IMG/VR virus record: IMGVR_UViG_2534681772_000018 | From: a virus | Taxonomy: Duplodnaviria > Heunggongvirae > Uroviricota > Caudoviricetes | Reading direction: 5' to 3' (one strand) | Length of the DNA stretch: 34,178 bases | Part shown: positions 1 to 31,083 of the stretch, in pieces | How positions within the stretch are numbered: the first letter of the stretch is position 1 | How the letters are laid out: every line of letters begins with the position of its first letter | Made by a program: the position numbers and the translations under genes | The notes under the pieces: model-generated | Databases searched by the model: none | Seen by the model: only the letters and a program-made list of their open reading frames with translations | Told to the model about the DNA's origin: nothing

Positions 1-981
1 TTATAACGTCACTCCGCCTTTTAGTGGATTCAGAGCGACGGCGTTCTGCAGGTAGTCAGGCGCAAGGTGCGCATAGGTCATTGTCTGCTGAATGCTCGCA
101 TGCCCCAGAATCTGTTGCAGTGCAATTATGTTGCCCCCATTCATCATGAAATGGCTTGCGAATGTATGCCGCAGAATGTGGGTTGCCTGATTGGGAGGTA
201 TATCAGGTTTCACTCTGCGTAAAATCCCGCAAAACTTCTCATAATCTACCTTGAACAATTTGGCGCTGGCCTCCTCTTTAACTTTTTTCTCCAGTTCCTC
301 AGAAATCGGCACTGTTCGCTTTTTACCGTTTTTGGTTTTCAGGAAGGTAACCCTGCAACTTGTAATCTGTGCTGGTTTTAGTGTGGCAACTTCCGTCCAC
401 CTTCCTCCAGTGCTCAGACATAAAAGCGCGACAAGTAAGTCATCACCAGTCAAAACATTTAGCAGTTTTTCGATTTCTGCTTTTTCCAGGAACGTCATTT
501 CAGGGTTAGCCTCCGTCAGTGGCGGCAGTCCGTGAATTGGGTGTTGCCCGGAAAATTCATCCAATTGAATTAATTTTGTGAACATGCCGGATAATCGGTA
601 CATGTCGCGGTTTATCGTTGCAGCACTGATGCCATCACGTAGTCGCATGGAGCGATAATCCATCAAAGCCCTTTTGTTCATCCGACTCACTGGTATATCA
701 CCTATGCCGCTGATGGTTTTGAGCAGATGATTAAACTCTTTTGTCCCATGCTCGTGGTTTTGCCCGTGGTATTTCCACCAGATGTCGAGCAATTCTGTCA
801 AAGTTCGGCGGTCTGCTCGCTGGCCTCCCCATTCTTTCTGACTGGCATTGGCGATTGTGTATCGCTCAAATGCTAGTGCTTCAGCTTTTCTTTCAAATTT
901 CCTGCGGATGCGTTTTCCGTTGCGACCGCGAGGTCTAATGTCCACTTCATAGCGACCATCATCGAGCTTCTTAATTGCCAT
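1..981 (-). CDS. int: Phage integrase, tyrosine recombinase (P2 Int-like)
   Basis: ORF 1..1011 on minus strand with TAA stop at 1-3. C-terminal catalytic region HILRHTFASHFMMNGG...GHASIQQTMTYAHL fits the tyrosine recombinase R/H/R/Y pattern. Internal ATG at 981 (MAIKKLDDGRYEV) is preceded by GGAGGG at 7-nt spacing, so 981 is preferred over 1011. First gene of the prophage, next to the C repressor as in P2. Confidence 0.9.
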   Translation of the reverse strand: MAIKKLDDGRYEVDIRPRGRNGKRIRRKFERKAEALAFERYTIANASQKEWGGQRADRRTLTELLDIWWKYHGQNHEHGTKEFNHLLKTISGIGDIPVSRMNKRALMDYRSMRLRDGISAATINRDMYRLSGMFTKLIQLDEFSGQHPIHGLPPLTEANPEMTFLEKAEIEKLLNVLTGDDLLVALLCLSTGGRWTEVATLKPAQITSCRVTFLKTKNGKKRTVPISEELEKKVKEEASAKLFKVDYEKFCGILRRVKPDIPPNQATHILRHTFASHFMMNGGNIIALQQILGHASIQQTMTYAHLAPDYLQNAVALNPLKGGVTL

Positions 982-1050
982 AAGAAAGCCCTCCGGCGCT
1001 GTATTCACCATCTTGGTGGCAAATGGTGAAAATGTAATTTTTATATAGAG

Positions 1051-3509: not shown

Positions 3510-5775
3510 AGCCTCCGGGCGTTTTGTCCCTCCGTCAGCATTTACCGCAGGCACCGGTAAGGCGTTTACCGGTGCTTATGCATGGAACGCGCCACGCGAG
3601 GCTGTCGGGCGCGAAAGACCTCTTACACGTGACGAGATGCGTCAGGTGCAAGGTGTTTTATCCACGATTAACCGCCTGCCTTACTTTTTGCGCTCGCTGT
3701 TTACTTCACGCTATGACTACATCCGGCGCAATAAAAGCCCGGTGCACGGGTTTTATTTCCTCACATCCACTTTTCAGCGTCGTTTATGGCCGCGCATTGA
3801 GCGTGTGAATCAGCGCCATGAAATGAACACCGACGCGTCGTTGCTGTTTCTGGCAGAGCGTGACCACTATGCGCGCCTGCCGGGAATGAATGACAAGGAG
3901 CTGAAAAAGTTTGCCGCCCGTATCTCATCGCAGCTTTTCATGATGTATGAGGAACTCTGCGATGCATGGGTTGATGCGCATGGTGAAAAAGAATCGCTGT
4001 TTACGGATGAGGCGCAGGCTCACCTGTATGGTCATGTTGCTGGCGCTGCACGTGCTTTCAATATTTCCCCGCTCTACTGGAAAAAATACCGTAAAGGACA
4101 GATGACCACGAGGCAGGCATATTCTGCCATTGCCCGTCTGTTTAACGATGAGTGGTGGACTCATCAGCTTAAAGGCCAGCGTATGCGCTGGCATGAAGCG
4201 TTACTGATAGCTGTCGGGGAGGTCAATAAAGACCGTTCTCCTTATGCCAGTAAACACGCCATTCGTGATGTGCGTGCGCGCCGCCAGGCAAATCTGGAAT
4301 TTCTTAAATCGTGTGACCTTGAAAACAGGGAAACCGGCGAGCGCATCGACCTTATCAGTAAGGTGATGGGCAGTATTTCTAATCCTGAAATTCGCCGGAT
4401 GGAGCTGATGAACACCATTGCCGGTATTGAGCGTTACGCCGCCGCAGAGGGCGATGTGGGGATGTTTATCACGCTGACCGCACCGTCAAAGTATCACCCG
4501 ACACGTCAGGTCGGAAAAGGCGAAAGTAAAACCGTGCAGCTTAATCACGGCTGGAACGATGAGGCATTTAATCCAAAGGATGCGCAGCGTTATCTCTGCC
4601 GTATCTGGAGCCTGATGCGCACGGCATTCAAGGATAATGATTTACAGGTTTACGGTTTGCGAGTCGTCGAGCCACACCACGACGGAACGCCGCACTGGCA
4701 TATGATGCTTTTTTGTAATCCACGCCAGCGTAACCAGATTATTGAAATCATGCGTCGCTACGCGCTCAAAGAGGATGGCGACGAAAGAGGAGCTGCGCGA
4801 AACCGTTTTCAGGCAAAACACCTTAACCGGGGCGGTGCTGCGGGATATATCGCGAAATACATTTCAAAAAACATCGACGGCTATGCACTGGATGGTCAGC
4901 TCGATAACGATACCGGCAGGCCGCTGAAAGACACTGCCGCGGCTGTTACCGCATGGGCGTCAACGTGGCGCATTCCGCAATTTAAAACGGTTGGCCTGCC
5001 GACAATGGGGGCTTACCGTGAACTACGCAAATTGCCTCGCGGCGTCAGCATTGCTGATGAGTTTGACGAGCGCGTCGAGGCTGCACGCGCCGCCGCAGAC
5101 AGTGGTGATTTTGCGTTGTATATCAGCGCGCAGGGTGGGGCAAATGTCCCGCGCGATTGTCAGACTGTCAGGGTCGCCCGTAGCCCGTCGGATGACGTTA
5201 ACGAGTACGAGGAAGAAGTCGAGAGAGTGGTCGGCATTTACGCGCCGCATCTCGGCGCGCGTCATATTCATATCACCAGAACGACGGACTGGCGCATTGT
5301 GCCGAAAGTTCCGGTCGTTGAGCCTTTGACTTTAAAAAGCGGCATCGCCGCGCCTCGGAGTCCTGTCAATAACTGTGGAAAGCTCACCGGTGGTGATACT
5401 TCGTTACCGGCTCCCACACCTTCTGAGCACGCCGCAGCAGTGCTTAATCTGGTTGATGACGGTGTTATCGAATGGAATGACCCGGAGGTCGTGAGGGCGC
5501 TCAAAAGCGCATTAAAACACGGCCTGAGAAGACCAAACCGTCAGCAAAGAAACGGAAACCCGTTAAAACCACATGAAATTGCACCATCGGCCAGACTGAG
5601 CCGGTCGGAGCGATTGCAAATCACCCGTATCCGCGTTGACCTTGCTCAGAATGGAATCTTGCCCCAGCGATGGGAGCTTGAGGCGCTGGCGCGTGGGGCA
5701 ACCGTAAATTATGACGGGAAAAAATTCACGTATCCGGTTGCTGATGAGTGGTCGGTTTTTTCAATTAAACAATAA
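3499..5775 (+). CDS. A: Rolling-circle replication initiator (P2 gpA-like, HUH endonuclease)
   Basis: About 758-aa ORF from the first ATG at 3499 (track ORF begins at TTG 3457). HUH-type metal-binding motif PHWHMMLF and paired-tyrosine motif GYIAKYISKNIDGY are typical of rolling-circle Rep proteins; position after the early ORFs matches P2 A. Confidence 0.9.
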   Translation: MAVKASGRFVPPSAFTAGTGKAFTGAYAWNAPREAVGRERPLTRDEMRQVQGVLSTINRLPYFLRSLFTSRYDYIRRNKSPVHGFYFLTSTFQRRLWPRIERVNQRHEMNTDASLLFLAERDHYARLPGMNDKELKKFAARISSQLFMMYEELCDAWVDAHGEKESLFTDEAQAHLYGHVAGAARAFNISPLYWKKYRKGQMTTRQAYSAIARLFNDEWWTHQLKGQRMRWHEALLIAVGEVNKDRSPYASKHAIRDVRARRQANLEFLKSCDLENRETGERIDLISKVMGSISNPEIRRMELMNTIAGIERYAAAEGDVGMFITLTAPSKYHPTRQVGKGESKTVQLNHGWNDEAFNPKDAQRYLCRIWSLMRTAFKDNDLQVYGLRVVEPHHDGTPHWHMMLFCNPRQRNQIIEIMRRYALKEDGDERGAARNRFQAKHLNRGGAAGYIAKYISKNIDGYALDGQLDNDTGRPLKDTAAAVTAWASTWRIPQFKTVGLPTMGAYRELRKLPRGVSIADEFDERVEAARAAADSGDFALYISAQGGANVPRDCQTVRVARSPSDDVNEYEEEVERVVGIYAPHLGARHIHITRTTDWRIVPKVPVVEPLTLKSGIAAPRSPVNNCGKLTGGDTSLPAPTPSEHAAAVLNLVDDGVIEWNDPEVVRALKSALKHGLRRPNRQQRNGNPLKPHEIAPSARLSRSERLQITRIRVDLAQNGILPQRWELEALARGATVNYDGKKFTYPVADEWSVFSIKQ
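5350..5369 (+). promoter_or_regulatory. Candidate replication origin / gpA nick site inside the A coding sequence
   Basis: Sequence GCGCCTCGGAGTCCTGTCAA lies within A; from memory the P2 ori nick site is inside gene A with this sequence. Assigned from recollection only. Confidence 0.35.
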
Positions 5776-5976
5776 TGGCTACTGCCGCAGCGTTGTGGGA
5801 ATGCTATAGTGTTTGTAGAATTATCCCATGAAAAACAACTAATTAATCTGTTTTTCATATTGAACTAATTTTTTATGGCCACAGTTGTTAAAAAGTGAGA
5901 ACATAATCTTGTTCAAAACCTGCTTCTATATACGGAGGCTTTCGCTATAATACGCGGTCGGTTTTAGGAGGGGATA

Positions 5977-6921
5977 ATGCCAACAGTAGTTTCACTTTTT
6001 TCTGGATGCGGTGGTTCCGATGCGGGGGTTCTGAGAGCTGGCTTTGATGTGCTTATGGCCAACGATATCTTGCCGTATGCGCGCGATGTTTATATTGCCA
6101 ATCATCCAGAAACTGATTACATTTTAGGCAATATTGCTGATGTAACTACTTTTCCTAAATCTGATTTGCTAGTAGGTTGTTATCCATGTCAGGGATTCAG
6201 CCAGGGTGGTGCGCGTAAGGCCGATCGAAAAATTAATACTCTTTATTTAGAGTTTGCTAGAGCTTTAAACAATATAAAGCCTAAAGCTTTTATAGTAGAA
6301 AACGTGTCTGGTATGGTTAGAAAAAACTTCGAGCATTTGTTATCTGACCAGATCAGGGTTTTTACTGAAGCAGGTTATGCTGTTTCAGCAAAAGTTTTGA
6401 ATGCGGCTGAATATGGAGTAGCGCAGGAAAGAAAAAGAATATTTATCGTAGGAATCCGTAATGATTTCAAAGTTAAGTACGAGTTCCCTCAGCCAACTCA
6501 TGGGCCGGCGACTGGCGTCAACTATGTTACTATTAAAGATGCTATAGGGCATTTACCTGAATGGCCAGAAGGTGAATTTTATGATATGGGGTTCCATTGG
6601 TATTATATGTCTCGCAATCGTCGCCAAGATTGGGATCAAATTTCAAAGACAATAGTTGCTAATGCAAGGCATATGCCGTTGCATCCTATCAGTCCTTCGA
6701 TGGAGAAAGTAAGAACTGATGAATGGAGGTTTGTTGAGGATCGGAGAGCTCGCAGATTCAGTTTTCGAGAGGCAGCACTATTACAAGGGTTTGAGGATCT
6801 AGTGTTTCCCGAAACAAATGCTGCAAGTCTTGGCATGAAATACACGGTGGTTGGTAATGCAGTGCCTCCGCCGCTTTTTGAAGCTGTAACGAAGGCATTG
6901 CCAATAGAATTATGGGATTGA
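5977..6921 (+). CDS. DNA (cytosine-5)-methyltransferase, Dcm/M.HhaI-like
   Basis: 314-aa ORF with the canonical C5-MTase motifs: motif I FSGCGG, motif IV PCQGFS (catalytic Cys), motif VI ENV, motif VIII QERKR, motif X GNAV. AGGAGGGG precedes the ATG; TATAAT at 5946-5951 upstream. Noticeably AT-rich relative to the phage backbone. Confidence 0.9.
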   Translation: MPTVVSLFSGCGGSDAGVLRAGFDVLMANDILPYARDVYIANHPETDYILGNIADVTTFPKSDLLVGCYPCQGFSQGGARKADRKINTLYLEFARALNNIKPKAFIVENVSGMVRKNFEHLLSDQIRVFTEAGYAVSAKVLNAAEYGVAQERKRIFIVGIRNDFKVKYEFPQPTHGPATGVNYVTIKDAIGHLPEWPEGEFYDMGFHWYYMSRNRRQDWDQISKTIVANARHMPLHPISPSMEKVRTDEWRFVEDRRARRFSFREAALLQGFEDLVFPETNAASLGMKYTVVGNAVPPPLFEAVTKALPIELWD

Positions 6922-6928
6922 TAAGCTA

Positions 6929-7924
6929 TTAAGGCTCTGGATTTAATGTATAAAGTTCTTCTTCAAATTCGCGAAACCAATCAGAGGTAGTTATCGCTTC
7001 CCATTGGTTTGCCTTATCAAGTAGATATATGATCCTCAACCTATCTAATAATAATACACCAGCGGTTGCATGTGTGCTTACCCATTCGCCATTTGCTTCC
7101 CGATAGAAAACAGGCGTGAACATTGTTGATGGATGCTGGAAAGCAATTTGGAAATAGGTGGTCAGTTTTAACACGTTAGCCTCTAATGTTTTGCTTGGCC
7201 ACCCTGTTTCTTGTGCACCACATTGACCAAGAATTCCATAGTTGCTAGTTTGACCATCAGGAAATTCCACTGTAGCAATTAGGTCAAACCCAGCATCACC
7301 AGATGTGGGAGCTTTATTTATTTCCCTTGTGTTTAAACTACAAACTCCAAGATCTTTTCCTAAAATTTGTAGAGCATTCCGAAGATTCGTTCCATAATAT
7401 TTTTGCCTATCATCGGAGTTAGCATCAAAAATTCTTACGGTGCCATGTGCAGGTAAGAGAGAAATCATTGCAACTTTACATACTCTGGCAAAGCTCTTTG
7501 CCCAACGTTGTGCTGCTCCTCTAATCGACTTAAAGGATCTAAGTCTAGAGCAACAAAGGAGAAAAACATATATTCTTTGTTGTTGGTTTAGATTTTCTTT
7601 AATAATTATCTCATCACCTGAAATTATAAATGGATATATCTTTCCAAGAGCGCTTTCTCTATATTCGAGTTGTGTCCAAACATCTTCTAGTTGCTCTTCA
7701 AAACGATCATTTCTCTCTGCGTCTCCATCAATTTCTTCTTCAAAATTACATTCTTCATCAATTTCTTCAACACTTGTCATGCCGAATTTTCTTACTGAAT
7801 CTAAATCATTTTTATGCAGAGAGTTACGTCCGATATAATTAATCACCGTGAGTAACTCGGCTAAATCTGCAAACAAATGGGGAGAGTTGGGATGCATAAC
7901 TCCTACTTCAAAAGTCATCATCAC
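6929..7924 (-). CDS. Hypothetical protein (331 aa), second gene of the minus-strand cargo operon; no recognisable domain
   Basis: Long AT-rich ORF whose start overlaps the stop of the upstream ParB-like gene by 17 nt (7908-7924), and whose stop lies 7 nt from the convergent MTase stop. Acidic N-terminal stretch (EEIDEECNFEEEIDGDAERNDRFEE). No Walker, HNH or clear PD-(D/E)xK motif seen by eye. Confidence 0.6.
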   Translation of the reverse strand: MMMTFEVGVMHPNSPHLFADLAELLTVINYIGRNSLHKNDLDSVRKFGMTSVEEIDEECNFEEEIDGDAERNDRFEEQLEDVWTQLEYRESALGKIYPFIISGDEIIIKENLNQQQRIYVFLLCCSRLRSFKSIRGAAQRWAKSFARVCKVAMISLLPAHGTVRIFDANSDDRQKYYGTNLRNALQILGKDLGVCSLNTREINKAPTSGDAGFDLIATVEFPDGQTSNYGILGQCGAQETGWPSKTLEANVLKLTTYFQIAFQHPSTMFTPVFYREANGEWVSTHATAGVLLLDRLRIIYLLDKANQWEAITTSDWFREFEEELYTLNPEP

Positions 7925-9029
7925 CTCTGCTATTTTTCTCTGCTATTTCAGAACCTATAAGCTTAATATGTTTATTGATTCTTCGTGCTACTTCATGAGC
8001 CTGTCTATCATACTCTACTGTGGCAACCATGCCTGCTGCATCTATCAAAGCCGCTTCAACTTGATAAAGTAACTGGAGAAAGTCCTTAGTAATATCAGAT
8101 GTCAATTGGTAGGCCACTGCGAGTGGAGCCCCCATTCGGAATTGCTCCAATGCCTTAGGGCTACTAACAACAGCAGCTAATTCTCTTAAATTACGTGACT
8201 CTCCAACACGAGTTTTTTTATCCTCACCTTTTTTATATAACCACTCAGTTAGCTCTTTTATTTCTTTGTTCTTTAAGCTATTAGAGTTGATAATAGGATG
8301 ACTTGGTATTGTGTCTCCATCGTCTTCGATTGAAACTCCGACAAATTGGCCTAACCGCTCATCAGCAAGTGCTGTTGATAATACTGAAAATTTAATCGTT
8401 TCTTCATCTAGTTTTTCAATACCATAAAAATCATTTTCTTTAATGATTTCATACACCGCTAAAGCGTCTAGGTTACGCTTGATATGATCCCTACGACTGC
8501 CAATAGCTCTGGCAACCTCATAGTAGCGTAGCATCGGATCCTGATTTGCATTGGTATAATCAAAAAGCTGTTTAATATATCGAGCTTTTGATAAGGGCTC
8601 CCATTGTTTGACACCAGTAATATGTCTGAAACCAAGATACGGAAGAATCTCTTCTCTTGTTTGGCGCTCAATGACAGGAACACGATCGACTGTATGTTTT
8701 GCATTTGATGCAATTTCTCGTAGTCGAGCACTTGGATTTTCACATAGTGTCGGATCGCGTAATAATTTAACTGCGGATAGGCGACGGTTTCCTTCAACTA
8801 CAATGTACTTCCCCGGCGCGACACTGTCAGGAATGACAATCAATGGTTCTCCAGGGAAAAAACCATTTTCCGCAATAGCACTCATTAGATCTTCGATAGA
8901 TGTTGAGGTTGCTATGTAGTTAATCATTCCCAATTGGTCACGAGACACGCCTTCAGGAAGTCTTGGGTTTTCTGTGTCAAGTTCCAAATCATCTAGCGGA
9001 ACATAAAGTATTTCTGAATCAGCAATCAT
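7908..9029 (-). CDS. ParB/Srx-like N-terminal-domain protein (ParB-like nuclease/CTPase fold)
   Basis: 373-aa ORF; N-terminal region ...ENPRLPEG...PGEPLIVIPDSVAPGKYIVVEGNRRLSAVKLL parallels the ParB N-terminal domain, including the GxRRxxA arginine patch (compare Spo0J IVAGERRFRAA). GGAGA 6 nt upstream of ATG 9029. No parA partner gene nearby. Confidence 0.75.
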   Translation of the reverse strand: MIADSEILYVPLDDLELDTENPRLPEGVSRDQLGMINYIATSTSIEDLMSAIAENGFFPGEPLIVIPDSVAPGKYIVVEGNRRLSAVKLLRDPTLCENPSARLREIASNAKHTVDRVPVIERQTREEILPYLGFRHITGVKQWEPLSKARYIKQLFDYTNANQDPMLRYYEVARAIGSRRDHIKRNLDALAVYEIIKENDFYGIEKLDEETIKFSVLSTALADERLGQFVGVSIEDDGDTIPSHPIINSNSLKNKEIKELTEWLYKKGEDKKTRVGESRNLRELAAVVSSPKALEQFRMGAPLAVAYQLTSDITKDFLQLLYQVEAALIDAAGMVATVEYDRQAHEVARRINKHIKLIGSEIAEKNSRGDDDF

Positions 9030-9255: not shown

Positions 9256-9274
9256 GGCGAGGCGGGGAAAGCAC
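9256..9274. other. cos site (19-nt cohesive end sequence of P2-like phages)
   Basis: GGCGAGGCGGGGAAAGCAC matches my recollection of the P2 cohesive end; lies in the expected place between the A-side accessory locus and Q. Confidence 0.6.
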
Positions 9275-9443: not shown

Positions 9444-10478
9444 TCAGCCGTTGTCAGTGTCCAGTGAGTAGTTTTTAAAGCGGATGACCTCCTGACCGAG
9501 CCAGCCGTTTATCTCGCGGATCCTGTCCTGTAACGGGATAAGTTCATTGCGGACAAAGACCTTTGCCACTTTCTCAATATCACCCAGCGACCCGACGTTC
9601 TCCGGCTTGCCACCCATCAACTGAAAGGGGATGCGGTGCGCGTCCAGCAGGTCAGCGGCGCTGGCTTTTTTGATATTAAAAAAATCGTCCTTCGTCGCCA
9701 CTTCACTGAGGGGGATAATTTTAATGCCGTCGGCTTTCCCCTGTGGGGCATAGAGAAACAGGTTTTTAAAGTTGTTGCGGCCTTTCGACTTGACCATGTT
9801 TTCGCGAAGCATTTCGATATCGTTGCGGTCCTGCACGGCATCGGTGACGTACATGATGTATCCGGCATGTGCGCCGTTTTCGTAATACTTGCGGCGGAAC
9901 AGCGTGGCCGACTCATTCAGCCAGGCAGAGTTAAGGGCGCTGAGATATTCCGGCAGACCGTACAGCTCCTGATTAATATCCGGCTCCAGCAGGTGAAACA
10001 CGGAGCCGGGCGCGAAAGGTGTCGGCTCGTTGAAAGACGGCACCCACCAGTAAACATCCTCCTCCACGCCACGACGGGTATATTTGGCCGGTGAGGTTTC
10101 CAGTCTGATGACCTTACCGGTGGTGCTGTAACGCTTTTCCAGAAACGCATTACCGAACACCAGAAAATCCAGCACAAAACGGCTGAAATCCTGCTGGGAA
10201 AGCCACGGGTGCGGGATAAACGTTGAAGCCAGAATATTACGTTTGACGTAAATCGGTGAGCTGTGATGCACGGCAGCACGCAGACTTTTTGCCAGGCCGG
10301 TAAAGCTGACCGGTGGCTCATACCATCTGCCGTTACTGATGCACTCGACGTAATCCAGAATGTCACGCCGGTCGAGTACCGGTACCGGCTCACCAAAGGT
10401 GAATGCCTCCATTTTCGGGGCGCTGGCGGTCATTGTTTTTGCCGCAGGTTGCGGTGTTTTCCCTTTTTTCTTGCTCAT
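9444..10478 (-). CDS. Q: Portal protein (P2 gpQ)
   Basis: 344-aa ORF, same length as P2 Q, divergent from the O-N-M capsid operon and immediately downstream of P on the minus strand. Confidence 0.9.
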   Translation of the reverse strand: MSKKKGKTPQPAAKTMTASAPKMEAFTFGEPVPVLDRRDILDYVECISNGRWYEPPVSFTGLAKSLRAAVHHSSPIYVKRNILASTFIPHPWLSQQDFSRFVLDFLVFGNAFLEKRYSTTGKVIRLETSPAKYTRRGVEEDVYWWVPSFNEPTPFAPGSVFHLLEPDINQELYGLPEYLSALNSAWLNESATLFRRKYYENGAHAGYIMYVTDAVQDRNDIEMLRENMVKSKGRNNFKNLFLYAPQGKADGIKIIPLSEVATKDDFFNIKKASAADLLDAHRIPFQLMGGKPENVGSLGDIEKVAKVFVRNELIPLQDRIREINGWLGQEVIRFKNYSLDTDNG

Positions 10479-28643: not shown

Positions 28644-31083
28644 CAATGTAAAATTACAGGTATTGCTCAGGGCTGTTGACCAGGCATCCCGCCCGTTTAA
28701 ATCCATCCGCACAGCGAGCAAATCGCTGTCGGGGGATATCCGGGAAACACAAAAATCACTGCGCGAGCTGAACGGTCAGGCATCCCGTATTGAGGGATTT
28801 CGCAAGACCAGTGCACAGCTCGCCGTGACTGGTCATGCACTTGAAAAGGCACGGCAGGAGGCCGAAGCCCTTGCCACACAGTTTAAAAACACCGAACGTC
28901 CGACACGTGCTCAGGCGAAAGTGCTGGAATCCGCGAAGCGTGCGGCGGAGGACTTACAGGCGAAATATAACCGCCTGACGGATTCCGTTAAACGCCAGCA
29001 GCGGGAACTGGCCGTTGTGGGAATTAATACCCGCAATCTTGCACATGATGAGCAGGGACTGAAAAACCGTATCAGTGAAACCACCGCACAGCTTAACCGT
29101 CAGCGTGACGCGCTGGCGCGTGTCAGTGCGCAACAGGCAAAACTTAACGCAGTAAAACAGCGTTATCAGGCAGGCAAGGAACTGGCCGGAAATATGGCCT
29201 CAGTGGGCGCTGCCGGTGTGGGGATTGCGGCGGCGGGAACGATGGCCGGAGTTAAGTTGCTGATGCCAGGTTATGAGTTTGCGCAGAAAAACTCAGAATT
29301 GCTGGCCGTGCTCGGAGTGGCAAAAGACTCCGCCGAAATGACCGCACTACGCAAACAGGCGCGCCAGCTCGGCGACAATACCGCCGCCTCGGCGGATGAT
29401 GCGGCCGGTGCACAGATAATCATCGCGAAAGCCGGTGGGGATGTTGATGCCATTCAGGCGGCAACGCCGGTCACGCTGAATATGGCGCTGGCGAACCGCC
29501 GCACGATGGAAGAAAACGCCGCCCTGCTGATGGGGATGAAATCCGCCTTTCAGCTTTCAAACGATAAGGTCGCTCATATCGGGGATGTTCTCTCCATGAC
29601 GATGAACAAAACCGCCGCCGATTTTGACGGCATGAGCGATGCGCTGACCTATGCCGCACCTGTGGCAAAAAATGCCGGTGTCAGCATTGAAGAAACCGCC
29701 GCAATGGTCGGGGCGCTGCATGATGCAAAAATCACAGGCTCAATGGCGGGGACGGGAAGCCGTGCCGTGTTAAGCCGCCTGCAGGCACCGACGGGAAAAG
29801 CGTGGGATGCACTGAAAGAGCTTGGTGTGAAAACCTCAGACAGCAAGGGAAACACCCGACCAGTATTTACCATTCTGAAAGAAATGCAGGCCAGTTTTGA
29901 GAAAAACCGGCTCGGTACTGCCCAGCAGGCAGAATACATGAAAACCATTTTCGGGGAGGAGGCCAGCTCAGCCGCCGCTGTGCTGATGACTGCCGCGTCA
30001 ACCGGAAAGCTGGACAAACTGACCGCTGCGTTTAAAGCCTCAGACGGAAAGACCGCAGAACTGGTAAATATCATGCAGGACAACCTCGGCGGTGACTTTA
30101 AGGAGTTTCAGTCCGCTTATGAGGCGGTGGGGACTGACCTGTTTGACCAGCAGGAAGGCGCACTGCGTAAGCTCACTCAGACGGCCACAAAGTATGTGTT
30201 AAAACTCGACGGCTGGATCCAGAAAAACAAATCACTGGCGTCAACCATCGGCATCATTGCCGGTGGCGCACTGGCGCTGACTGGCATCATCGGTGCCATT
30301 GGTCTTGTAGCCTGGCCGGTTATCACCGGCATCAATGCCATCATCGCGGCAGCAGGCGCAATGGGGGCAATCTTCACGACGGTTGGCAGTGCTGTTATGA
30401 CGGCCATCGGGGCGATTAGCTGGCCGGTTGTGGCCGTGGTGGCCGCCATTGTCGCCGGGGTGTTGCTTATCCGTAAATACTGGGAGCCTGTCAGCGCATT
30501 CTTTGGCGGTGTGGTGGAAGGGCTGAAAGCGGCATTTGCGCCGGTGGGGGAACTGTTCACGCCACTTAAGCCGGTGTTTGACTGGCTGGGCGAAAAGTTA
30601 CAGGCCGCGTGGCAGTGGTTTAAAAACCTGATTGCCCCGGTCAAAGCCACACAGGACACCCTGAACCGTTGCCGTGACACGGGCGTCATGTTCGGGCAGG
30701 CACTGGCTGACGCGCTGATGCTGCCGCTTAATGCGTTCAACAAACTGCGCAGCGGCATTGACTGGGTACTGGAAAAGCTCGGGGTCATCAACAAAGAGTC
30801 AGACACACTTGACCAGACCGCCGCCAGAACTCATGCCGCCACGTATGGCACCGGTGGTTATATTCCGGCGACCAGCTCTTATGCAGGCTATCAGGCTTAT
30901 CAGCCGGTCACGGCACCGGCTGGCCGCTCTTATGTGGACCAGAGTAAAAACGAATATCACATCAGCCTGACGGGTGGTACTGCGCCGGGGACACAGCTTG
31001 ACCGCCAGTTACAGGATGCGCTCGAAAAATACGAGCGGGATAAACGTGCGCGCGCCCGTGCCAGCATGATGCATGACGGTTAA
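28636..31083 (+). CDS. T: Tail tape measure protein (P2 gpT)
   Basis: 815-aa ORF, same length as P2 T; coiled-coil-rich N-terminus and Gly/Ala-rich hydrophobic central segments typical of tape measure proteins. Confidence 0.9.
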   Translation: MSNNVKLQVLLRAVDQASRPFKSIRTASKSLSGDIRETQKSLRELNGQASRIEGFRKTSAQLAVTGHALEKARQEAEALATQFKNTERPTRAQAKVLESAKRAAEDLQAKYNRLTDSVKRQQRELAVVGINTRNLAHDEQGLKNRISETTAQLNRQRDALARVSAQQAKLNAVKQRYQAGKELAGNMASVGAAGVGIAAAGTMAGVKLLMPGYEFAQKNSELLAVLGVAKDSAEMTALRKQARQLGDNTAASADDAAGAQIIIAKAGGDVDAIQAATPVTLNMALANRRTMEENAALLMGMKSAFQLSNDKVAHIGDVLSMTMNKTAADFDGMSDALTYAAPVAKNAGVSIEETAAMVGALHDAKITGSMAGTGSRAVLSRLQAPTGKAWDALKELGVKTSDSKGNTRPVFTILKEMQASFEKNRLGTAQQAEYMKTIFGEEASSAAAVLMTAASTGKLDKLTAAFKASDGKTAELVNIMQDNLGGDFKEFQSAYEAVGTDLFDQQEGALRKLTQTATKYVLKLDGWIQKNKSLASTIGIIAGGALALTGIIGAIGLVAWPVITGINAIIAAAGAMGAIFTTVGSAVMTAIGAISWPVVAVVAAIVAGVLLIRKYWEPVSAFFGGVVEGLKAAFAPVGELFTPLKPVFDWLGEKLQAAWQWFKNLIAPVKATQDTLNRCRDTGVMFGQALADALMLPLNAFNKLRSGIDWVLEKLGVINKESDTLDQTAARTHAATYGTGGYIPATSSYAGYQAYQPVTAPAGRSYVDQSKNEYHISLTGGTAPGTQLDRQLQDALEKYERDKRARARASMMHDG

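Follow-up and report, generated by a model that had tools for sequence, protein, structure and literature searches.

A HaeIII-like C5-cytosine methyltransferase as the probable modification component of a mobile three-gene cassette in the P2 gpA/gpQ hotspot

Introduction

Which DNA site does a compact C5-cytosine methyltransferase (MTase) encoded by a P2-like prophage modify, and does the enzyme act alone or together with its neighbours? We addressed this question for the gene at positions 5977-6921 of a viral DNA stretch of 34,178 nucleotides (IMG/VR record IMGVR_UViG_2534681772_000018), which is called the window in the following. A first-pass annotation, made from the sequence alone, had described the gene as an intact MTase with its own expression signals, and had left both its target and its partner unknown. 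Our data make it likely that the product is an active C5-MTase related to M.HaeIII and serves as the modification component of a mobile three-gene defence cassette resembling a restriction-modification (R-M) system, located in the gpA/gpQ (old/tin) hotspot. By itself, the MTase is a routine new member of a very well-known family. We regard the module as a variant of R-M systems in which the C5-MTase is combined with a ParB-fold protein (ORF3) and an unclassified nuclease-like protein (ORF2), and it is this restriction half that is new.

Results

An intact methyltransferase with a HaeIII-like target recognition domain

The MTase and the domain that is expected to select its site are located as follows:

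5977-6921, plus strand: C5-cytosine DNA methyltransferase, M.HaeIII-like, 314 amino acids (aa), WP_001143635.1, ATG start
6469-6750, plus strand: target recognition domain (TRD), approximately aa 165-258, core FHWYYMSRNR...SKTIVANARHMPLHP

The open reading frame contains neither frameshifts nor internal stops. Its product matches PF00145 over residues 3-308 (E-value 5.2e-65; 220.4 bits, cut-off 22) as well as TIGR00675 (191.7 bits, cut-off 100.65), which bears out the earlier description of an intact, compact C5-MTase. All motifs named at that time were located, namely I (F8-SGCGG), IV (P70-C71-Q72), VI (E108-N-V), VIII (Q150-ERKR) and X (G293-NAV); motif IX (R259-RFSFRE) is present as well, and the catalytic motifs align with those of M.HaeIII. 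The gene is intact and belongs to the C5-cytosine MTase family, and catalytic activity of its product is predicted.

The first-pass annotation had placed the enzyme with the M.HhaI type. This is right for the size but not for the type, since the closest relative of solved structure is M.HaeIII, which recognizes GGCC. In a phmmer search, residues 4-308 of the MTase aligned with residues 3-320 of M.HaeIII, including the TRD (E-value 2.8e-48), whereas the alignment with M.HhaI (E-value 1.1e-23) reaches only residue 174, that is, through motif VIII. Overall, the MTase is about 39% identical to M.HaeIII in a MAFFT alignment, in agreement with phmmer. The two enzymes (PDB 1DCT/3UBT for M.HaeIII) share the family, the size class (314 versus 330 aa) and motifs I, IV, VI, VIII, IX and X; they differ in a 17-residue insertion before the TRD core of M.HaeIII, which the window MTase lacks.

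Residues S212, R213, R215 and R231 of the MTase correspond to S224, R225, R227 and R243 of M.HaeIII, and the pentapeptide MSRNR is identical in both. It has been shown for M.HaeIII that Arg225 touches the first G of GGCC, that Ser224 and Arg227 touch the inner bases and that the exchange Arg243Gln moves the specificity toward GCGC (Rockah-Shmuel and Tawfik, PMC3526282). We compared nine MTases from cassettes of the kind described below, ranging from E. coli to Methylomonas and being 64-90% identical overall. All nine share the TRD core FHWYY[ML]SR[ND]R..W...SKTIV..RHMPLHP, and the four residues are near-invariant among them. Because the alignment spans the TRD and the specificity residues of M.HaeIII are kept, we predict a GG(m5C)C core. 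The MTase would hence methylate the inner C of GGCC, either as such or within TGGCCA. The specificity, previously stated as unknown, is thus narrowed to a predicted core, while both GGCC and TGGCCA stay live candidates for the site itself.

The longer site is brought into play by work on Methylomonas sp. DH-1. For its C5-MTase AYM39_01025, REBASE predicted GGCC, and bisulfite whole-genome sequencing together with protection from MscI demonstrated that the enzyme methylates only TGG(m5C)CA (Ren et al. 2020, PMC7720504). Since the GGCC call proved to be TGGCCA, an extension to 6 bp is possible for our prediction as well, and the window MTase may differ from M.HaeIII in a site exceeding 4 bp. In the same study, transformation of DH-1 rose once TGGCCA sites were methylated or removed, which indicates a cognate restriction activity in this strain. 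Methylomonas koyamae, a relative of DH-1, carries the same three-gene cassette as the window. The cassette MTase of M. koyamae and the DH-1 enzyme do not share a 90% cluster, and we treat homology of the latter to the cassette family as a lead and not as a result. Reports on TGGCCA methylation in Chania, Photorhabdus and Acetobacterium were set aside as irrelevant, since they concern amino-MTases (N6-adenine or N4-cytosine) and not C5 enzymes.

The methyltransferase belongs to a conserved three-gene cassette

Two genes on the opposite strand converge on the MTase:

6929-7918, minus strand: ORF2, winged helix plus probable PD-(D/E)xK nuclease, 329 aa, WP_000142507.1, candidate cleavage subunit
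7908-9029, minus strand: ORF3, ParB/KorB-like, 373 aa, WP_000559726.1, overlapping ORF2 by 11 nucleotides (nt)

The stop codons of ORF2 and the MTase are 7 nt apart, and an alternative GTG start of ORF2 lies at 7924. Every context sampled for the MTase clade, five MTase clusters from P2 hotspots and 11 non-P2 loci, repeats this arrangement: a gene for a ParB-like protein comes first, a second gene of 308-341 aa overlaps or abuts it, and the MTase converges on both. Besides that of the window, the P2 set comprises four MTase clusters at 75-78% identity from P2/186-type hotspots of Klebsiella and E. coli. Outside it, we found the arrangement in Burkholderia, Methylophilaceae, Pseudomonas nitroreducens and Methylomonas, where it sits in unrelated integrative elements or at sites in the chromosome. 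A scan seeded with ORF2 added Edwardsiella, Methylobacter, Methyloversatilis, Gallionella, Nitrosomonadales, Halomonas and Melaminivora. Among the 14 ORF2 loci with enough flanking sequence to be assessed, 11 have the convergent MTase. Moreover, the stop codons of MTase and ORF2 are 7 nt apart or overlap across loci, and ORF3 overlaps ORF2 by 10-23 nt in most loci of one clade of the pair (clade A) and abuts it in the other (clade B). The overlap suggests translational coupling and a complex of the two proteins.

Since the linkage holds across such different mobile elements, a functional unit of MTase and pair is the only economical reading. The proposal that the MTase is the modification half of the adjacent module is supported by this synteny. 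Its partner need no longer be called unknown: it is a conserved convergent pair, whose nuclease function is predicted only.

The ORF3-ORF2 pair comes in two clades, both present in P2 hotspots of Klebsiella and E. coli (loci L002/L040 versus L008/L043). Identity between the clades is only 21-33%, while the MTases that they accompany are 84-90% identical. This pattern implies, as far as sequence comparison goes, that the restriction half is swapped in a modular way against a constant methylase. It would favour a pair that does not carry all of the sequence specificity; divergent isoschizomers would explain it equally well.

Some loci show additional variation. In a metagenome-assembled genome of Methylococcaceae (L023, 2584-4332), the pair lies directly downstream of a type I R-M specificity gene (HsdS) and no C5-MTase is present, which suggests alternative modification partners or a mode that is independent of the MTase. 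At two Methylophilaceae loci (L015, 7165-7929; L016, 3165-4097), an additional gene of the HNH_2 family (PF13391) separates the ORF2 homologue from the convergent MTase, and this gene may provide an added or alternative nuclease.

Of 5,426 complete E. coli genomes, 48 have the cassette in full; in the index of an assembly collection, a single Klebsiella MTase allele is found in 987 blocks. In their table of the P2 hotspot, Rousset et al. 2022 entered the three proteins (WP_000559726, WP_001143635, WP_000142507) under 'ParBc + DNA_methylase + hypothetical'; the trio is absent from the supplementary file of tested-system sequences of that study. A term search of a 2026 NAR survey of P2/P4 hotspots turned up no mention of the cassette. 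As far as the searchable literature shows, it has been catalogued and not characterised.

ORF2 resembles a nuclease and ORF3 a ParB-type protein

For ORF2, we found no match in Pfam (34 family members searched), PADLOC, NCBIfam or a PDB profile search. The protein corresponds to PHROG 3984, where no function is assigned. A structural comparison with Foldseek gave a weak hit to MspJI (E-value 0.028). The invariant polar residues D208, D212, Q232, Q236, K243 and E246 lie close together in what may be the catalytic beta-sheet, and no mapping of them onto a canonical motif was achieved. From the structural model, ORF2 is a probable, not proven, PD-(D/E)xK-like nuclease.

In ORF3, a ParB/Srx N-domain is followed by a KorB/ParB-type helix-turn-helix (HTH) and a C-domain made of helices, and the protein closes with an acidic tail and a final Phe; its AlphaFold2 model has a pLDDT of 89. 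With the ParB/Srx N-fold, the GxxR signature and the HTH it has the hallmarks of a ParB/KorB-like protein, and the box II-like stretch E79-G-N-R-R83 is invariant. The score against TIGR00180 is 32.8 bits, below the cut-off of 58.45. In PADLOC, residues 43-339 match the candidate PDC-M38A, and residues 9-192 match 25 PD-Lambda-5_A models (best E-value 1.6e-28). This acidic tail, encoded within the overlap with ORF2 (window 7908-7930), is conserved throughout the ORF3 family, and Phe is its last residue (e.g. ..GDDDF). It is similar to the C-terminal protein-interaction tail of the single-stranded DNA-binding protein SSB and may, by analogy, be a docking peptide for ORF2 or a host protein.

The cassette occupies the cos-proximal hotspot of a P2-like prophage

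The window is identical (100%) to a P2-like prophage of enterotoxigenic E. coli TW10590 (NZ_CP035850.1), inserted beside cpxP. Its frame is given by the following features:

1-1011, minus strand: integrase
up to 5775, plus strand: early operon, with the gpA replication endonuclease as its last gene
9256 (approximate), no strand: cos, where the packaged genome of the near-identical Yersinia phage HQ103 has its left end
9444-10478, minus strand: portal gpQ; terminase and late genes lie beyond

The packaged left end of HQ103 maps to window position 9256, which places the cargo in the cos-proximal gpA/gpQ hotspot; the three genes directly adjoin cos, and no other gene lies between gpA and cos. This is the position of old and tin in phage P2, known as a defence hotspot (Rousset et al. 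2022; Vassallo et al. 2022). The 3.3-kb cassette, bounded by gpA and cos/gpQ, has a G+C content of 39.8% compared to 51.8% for the window, which fits horizontal acquisition. In the RefSeq record of HQ103 (L021, NC_070908.1), an intact MTase gene at 28684-29625, with 99% aa identity to the window MTase, is unannotated, and both partner genes carry the label hypothetical.

A hairpin that resembles a terminator and is followed by a T-run is found at 5734-5761 (5734-5755 by a narrower delimitation), within the last gpA codons and before the stop at 5775. It probably ends the early operon upstream of the cargo and is consistent with separate transcription of the MTase, for which two signals were found:

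5946-5951, plus strand: TATAAT, -10 hexamer of the MTase promoter, no recognisable -35
5966-5973, plus strand: Shine-Dalgarno sequence AGGAGGGG, 3 nt before the ATG; AGGAGGG in L002 and L008

The strong Shine-Dalgarno sequence reported earlier is conserved in the two Klebsiella cassettes L002 and L008. Of the promoter-like signals claimed with it, the TATAAT is present and conserved, while a full promoter was not recovered. The sequence 'TTCGCTATAAT' lies about 25 nt before the MTase ATG in the window, in L002 and L008, and in the Burkholderia vietnamiensis cassette (L013), whose upstream region is otherwise unrelated to that of the window. As this spacing is kept even in unrelated upstream DNA, we take TATAAT as more than a chance hexamer, and an accidental -10 seems unlikely. 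For the ORF3-ORF2 operon, no -10 or -35 upstream of ORF3 is conserved across lineages.

TGGCCA sites cluster in the cassette

A copy of the longer candidate site precedes the MTase gene:

5876-5881, no strand: TGGCCA palindrome some 100 nt ahead of the MTase start, a candidate for the cognate site or for a regulatory one

It marks the left edge of the sequence conserved between the enterobacterial cassettes; in L002, the site at this edge grows to a 10-bp palindrome, TGTGGCCACA. Four of the five TGGCCA sites of the window fall inside the cassette (5876, 6056, 6562, 7196), where about 0.5 would be expected from base composition, and a cassette-free P2-like relative contains none. The three intragenic sites coincide with conserved Met-Ala-Asn or Trp-Pro codons, so that protein constraint explains part of the clustering. 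In 4 of 11 independent lineages, a TGGCCA occurs in the 170 nt that precede the MTase start. No other 6-bp palindrome is shared as widely in this region, the next one reaching 2 of 11. The clustering hints at a 6-bp site.

For a modification half of the adjacent module, under-representation or protection of the cognate site had been expected. GGCC is indeed the second most depleted 4-mer palindrome of the window (123 observed versus 185 expected), but the link to the cassette fails: the ratio of observed to expected is 0.66 in the window, 0.70 in HQ103, which has the cassette, and 0.69 in a P2-like phage that lacks it. In all three, TGGCCA, CGGCCG and AGGCCT are depleted along with numerous further GC-rich 6-mers. 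Palindrome avoidance was therefore rejected as evidence; the test is uninformative because P2 relatives show the same depletion of GGCC without having the cassette.

Independently of the cassette, the P2-like backbone appears to shun GC-rich 6-bp palindromes whatever the hotspot cargo, as seen in the window, in a phage with cdt cargo (L020) and in HQ103. Observed versus expected counts are 3 versus 29 for GCCGGC, 0 versus 17 for GGCGCC, 0 versus 13 for CAGCTG, 1 versus 13 for CGGCCG and 0-5 versus 13-17 for TGGCCA; the observed/expected ratios are 0.16-0.28 for GATC and 0.04-0.23 for GGWCC.

Discussion

Taken together, the MTase with its HaeIII-like TRD, the synteny of the three genes, the conserved residues and the folds of the partners argue for an R-M-like defence module. 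What we infer from them is everything enzymatic: the exact site, nuclease activity, methylation sensitivity, any dependence on nucleoside triphosphates (NTP) and expression in the lysogen. In such a module, a weak promoter of its own, with only a -10, would drive transcription of the MTase gene in the lysogen, and the enzyme would mark the inner C of the GGCC core, in a GGCC or TGGCCA palindrome, on host and prophage DNA. The convergent, translationally coupled ORF3-ORF2 operon would provide the restriction activity. ORF3, with its NTP-pocket domain and HTH, would recognize or scan DNA, possibly in a nucleotide-gated manner, and ORF2, with its winged helix and PD-(D/E)xK-like domain, would cut DNA without the mark.

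Several observations weigh against this reading. Three of the 14 assessed ORF3-ORF2 loci (L023, L033 and L028) have no MTase within 6 kb; in L028, an IS605 element occupies the position of the MTase. ORF3 lacks the residues of ParB box III (ENLQR), in the place of which stands an invariant LGFRHITGVKQWEP segment (R135, H136, T138, K141 and W143 invariant), and a profile search of ORF3 against PDB gave no sequence-level match. A scan for the two-hexamer sigma-70 consensus called no promoter at 5946-5951, because there is no -35 hexamer with at least 4/6 matches 16-18 nt upstream and no TG extension. Finally, no site avoidance attributable to the cassette was found among the window, the cassette-free P2-like phage and HQ103.

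The absence of McrBC/Mrr from cassette-bearing strains was considered as a sign of MTase expression and rejected. TW10590 and ATCC 8739, which both bear the cassette, lack mcrBC-hsd-mrr at the yjiA locus, and 89% of complete E. coli genomes likewise lack this K-12 region, K-12-type mcrBC being present in only 597 of the 5,426 genomes. As most E. coli genomes lack it, its absence is uninformative on MTase expression. At this 'immigration control' locus, TW10590 (L048, 607-612 kb) has a penicillin G acylase gene instead of mrr-hsdRMS-mcrBC, and ATCC 8739 (L049, 4354-4357 kb) has IS1 and brnTA.

How does the proposed module relate to known systems? As in type II R-M systems, the MTase is genetically linked to a candidate endonuclease gene, in 11/14 ORF2 loci and in all sampled MTase contexts. 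Type II restriction relies on a simple Mg2+-dependent endonuclease that has no NTP-binding accessory subunit, whereas here a ParB/Srx-fold protein, in which a GNRR box is invariant, is always translationally coupled to the nuclease candidate. A second difference from the HaeIII system is that the neighbours of the window MTase have no match to RE_HaeIII or any other restriction-enzyme Pfam family, so the partner is not a HaeIII-type single-chain endonuclease. The EcoO109I system of P4-like satellites is likewise a compact MTase with a nuclease as cargo of the cos-proximal P2/P4 hotspot; it differs in having a single restriction endonuclease (Pfam RE_EcoO109I) and an HTH controller, while our cassette has two restriction-side genes of unassigned family and no controller protein. 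A closer analogy for the restriction half may be GmrSD, BrxU and SspE, in which a ParB-like DUF262 (ParB/Srx-fold) nucleotide-binding domain is combined with a nuclease. ORF3 and ORF2 could be a split version of this logic.

It is conceivable, but on balance doubtful, that the pair represents a nucleotide-switch restriction enzyme of a new class. ORF3 would then be a clamp that loads at unmethylated GGCC or TGGCCA like ParB at parS, slides or spreads on foreign DNA and delivers or activates the PD-(D/E)xK subunit, and the MTase would block loading on self DNA. ParB/KorB-type CTP clamps are marked by box III residues, by CTP binding and hydrolysis and by a parS or ParA partner; box III is missing from ORF3, and the cassette contains no ParA gene. 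If true, the enzyme would parallel the ATP-driven type I and III enzymes and the GTP-driven McrBC, with CTP (or another NTP) as its gate.

The main rival to an R-M-like module is a hybrid of R-M and abortive infection as in PD-lambda-5, an experimentally validated system that also consists of a prophage-borne protein with a ParB N-domain and a methyltransferase (Vassallo et al. 2022, PMC9519451). Here, the MTase would mark self, and ORF3-ORF2 would be a sensor-effector pair and not a site-specific endonuclease, triggering indiscriminate DNA cleavage or growth arrest upon infection or loss of methylation. The match of the N-terminal 190 residues of ORF3 to the PD-Lambda-5_A models points in this direction, and the marked divergence of the Klebsiella pair clades beside nearly constant MTases would be easier to explain if the pair does not read the site. 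However, the PD-Lambda-5_A profile is covered only at 7-196 of 440, and ORF3 has no HEPN domain. PD-lambda-5 is described as 'ParB/HEPN, methyltransferase' (PMC9519451); it has two genes, one of which encodes a fusion of HEPN with the ParB-like domain, and that study needed a host from which the mrr-containing region had been deleted. The window cassette has three genes, and its effector would be a separate protein with a winged helix and, according to the model, a restriction-endonuclease-like fold. No PD-Lambda-5_B model was among the PADLOC matches listed for the full MTase or among those for its TRD. In addition, convergent MTase and nuclease genes with near-abutting 3' ends are typical of type II R-M systems. 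Overall, we consider such a hybrid unlikely.

Still less probable is a solitary anti-restriction or epigenetic methylase, which would shield the phage from GGCC-type host enzymes or regulate prophage genes next to independent cargo. Phage C5-MTases are often orphans, the gene has its own -10 and Shine-Dalgarno sequence on the strand opposite to its neighbours, and the three ORF3-ORF2 loci without a nearby MTase would suit independent genes. Against this stands that the pair adjoins the MTase in all sampled contexts, the five P2-hotspot clusters as well as the 11 non-P2 loci; chance co-carriage over such different elements is implausible. A remnant or variant of Druantia type II or of a DISARM-like system, with the MTase as its DruM/DrmMII component, is very improbable: a DruM-like methylase is present (in PADLOC, the MTase scores best against DruM2, with 1e-113, and its TRD taken by itself matches DruM2 with 4.6e-28 and DrmMII with 5.7e-14), but there are no Drm helicase genes and no DruE with adjacent DruF and DruG, the neighbours have no Dru matches in PADLOC, and the 3.3-kb cassette between gpA and cos/gpQ consists of the same three genes at every locus examined.

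The cassette is common, widely mobile and so far only catalogued, in one of the best-studied defence hotspots. Cloning of the m5C methylase in McrBC+ laboratory strains is likely to cause problems. If the cassette is active, it would form a barrier to transformation and to phage therapy in E. coli and Klebsiella lysogens. It would also add a new architecture to the R-M systems and tie ParB-type nucleotide switches, a very active topic, to methylation-based discrimination between self and non-self. The interest would be considerably greater if the ParB-like subunit turned out to be a nucleotide-switch loader for a restriction nuclease.

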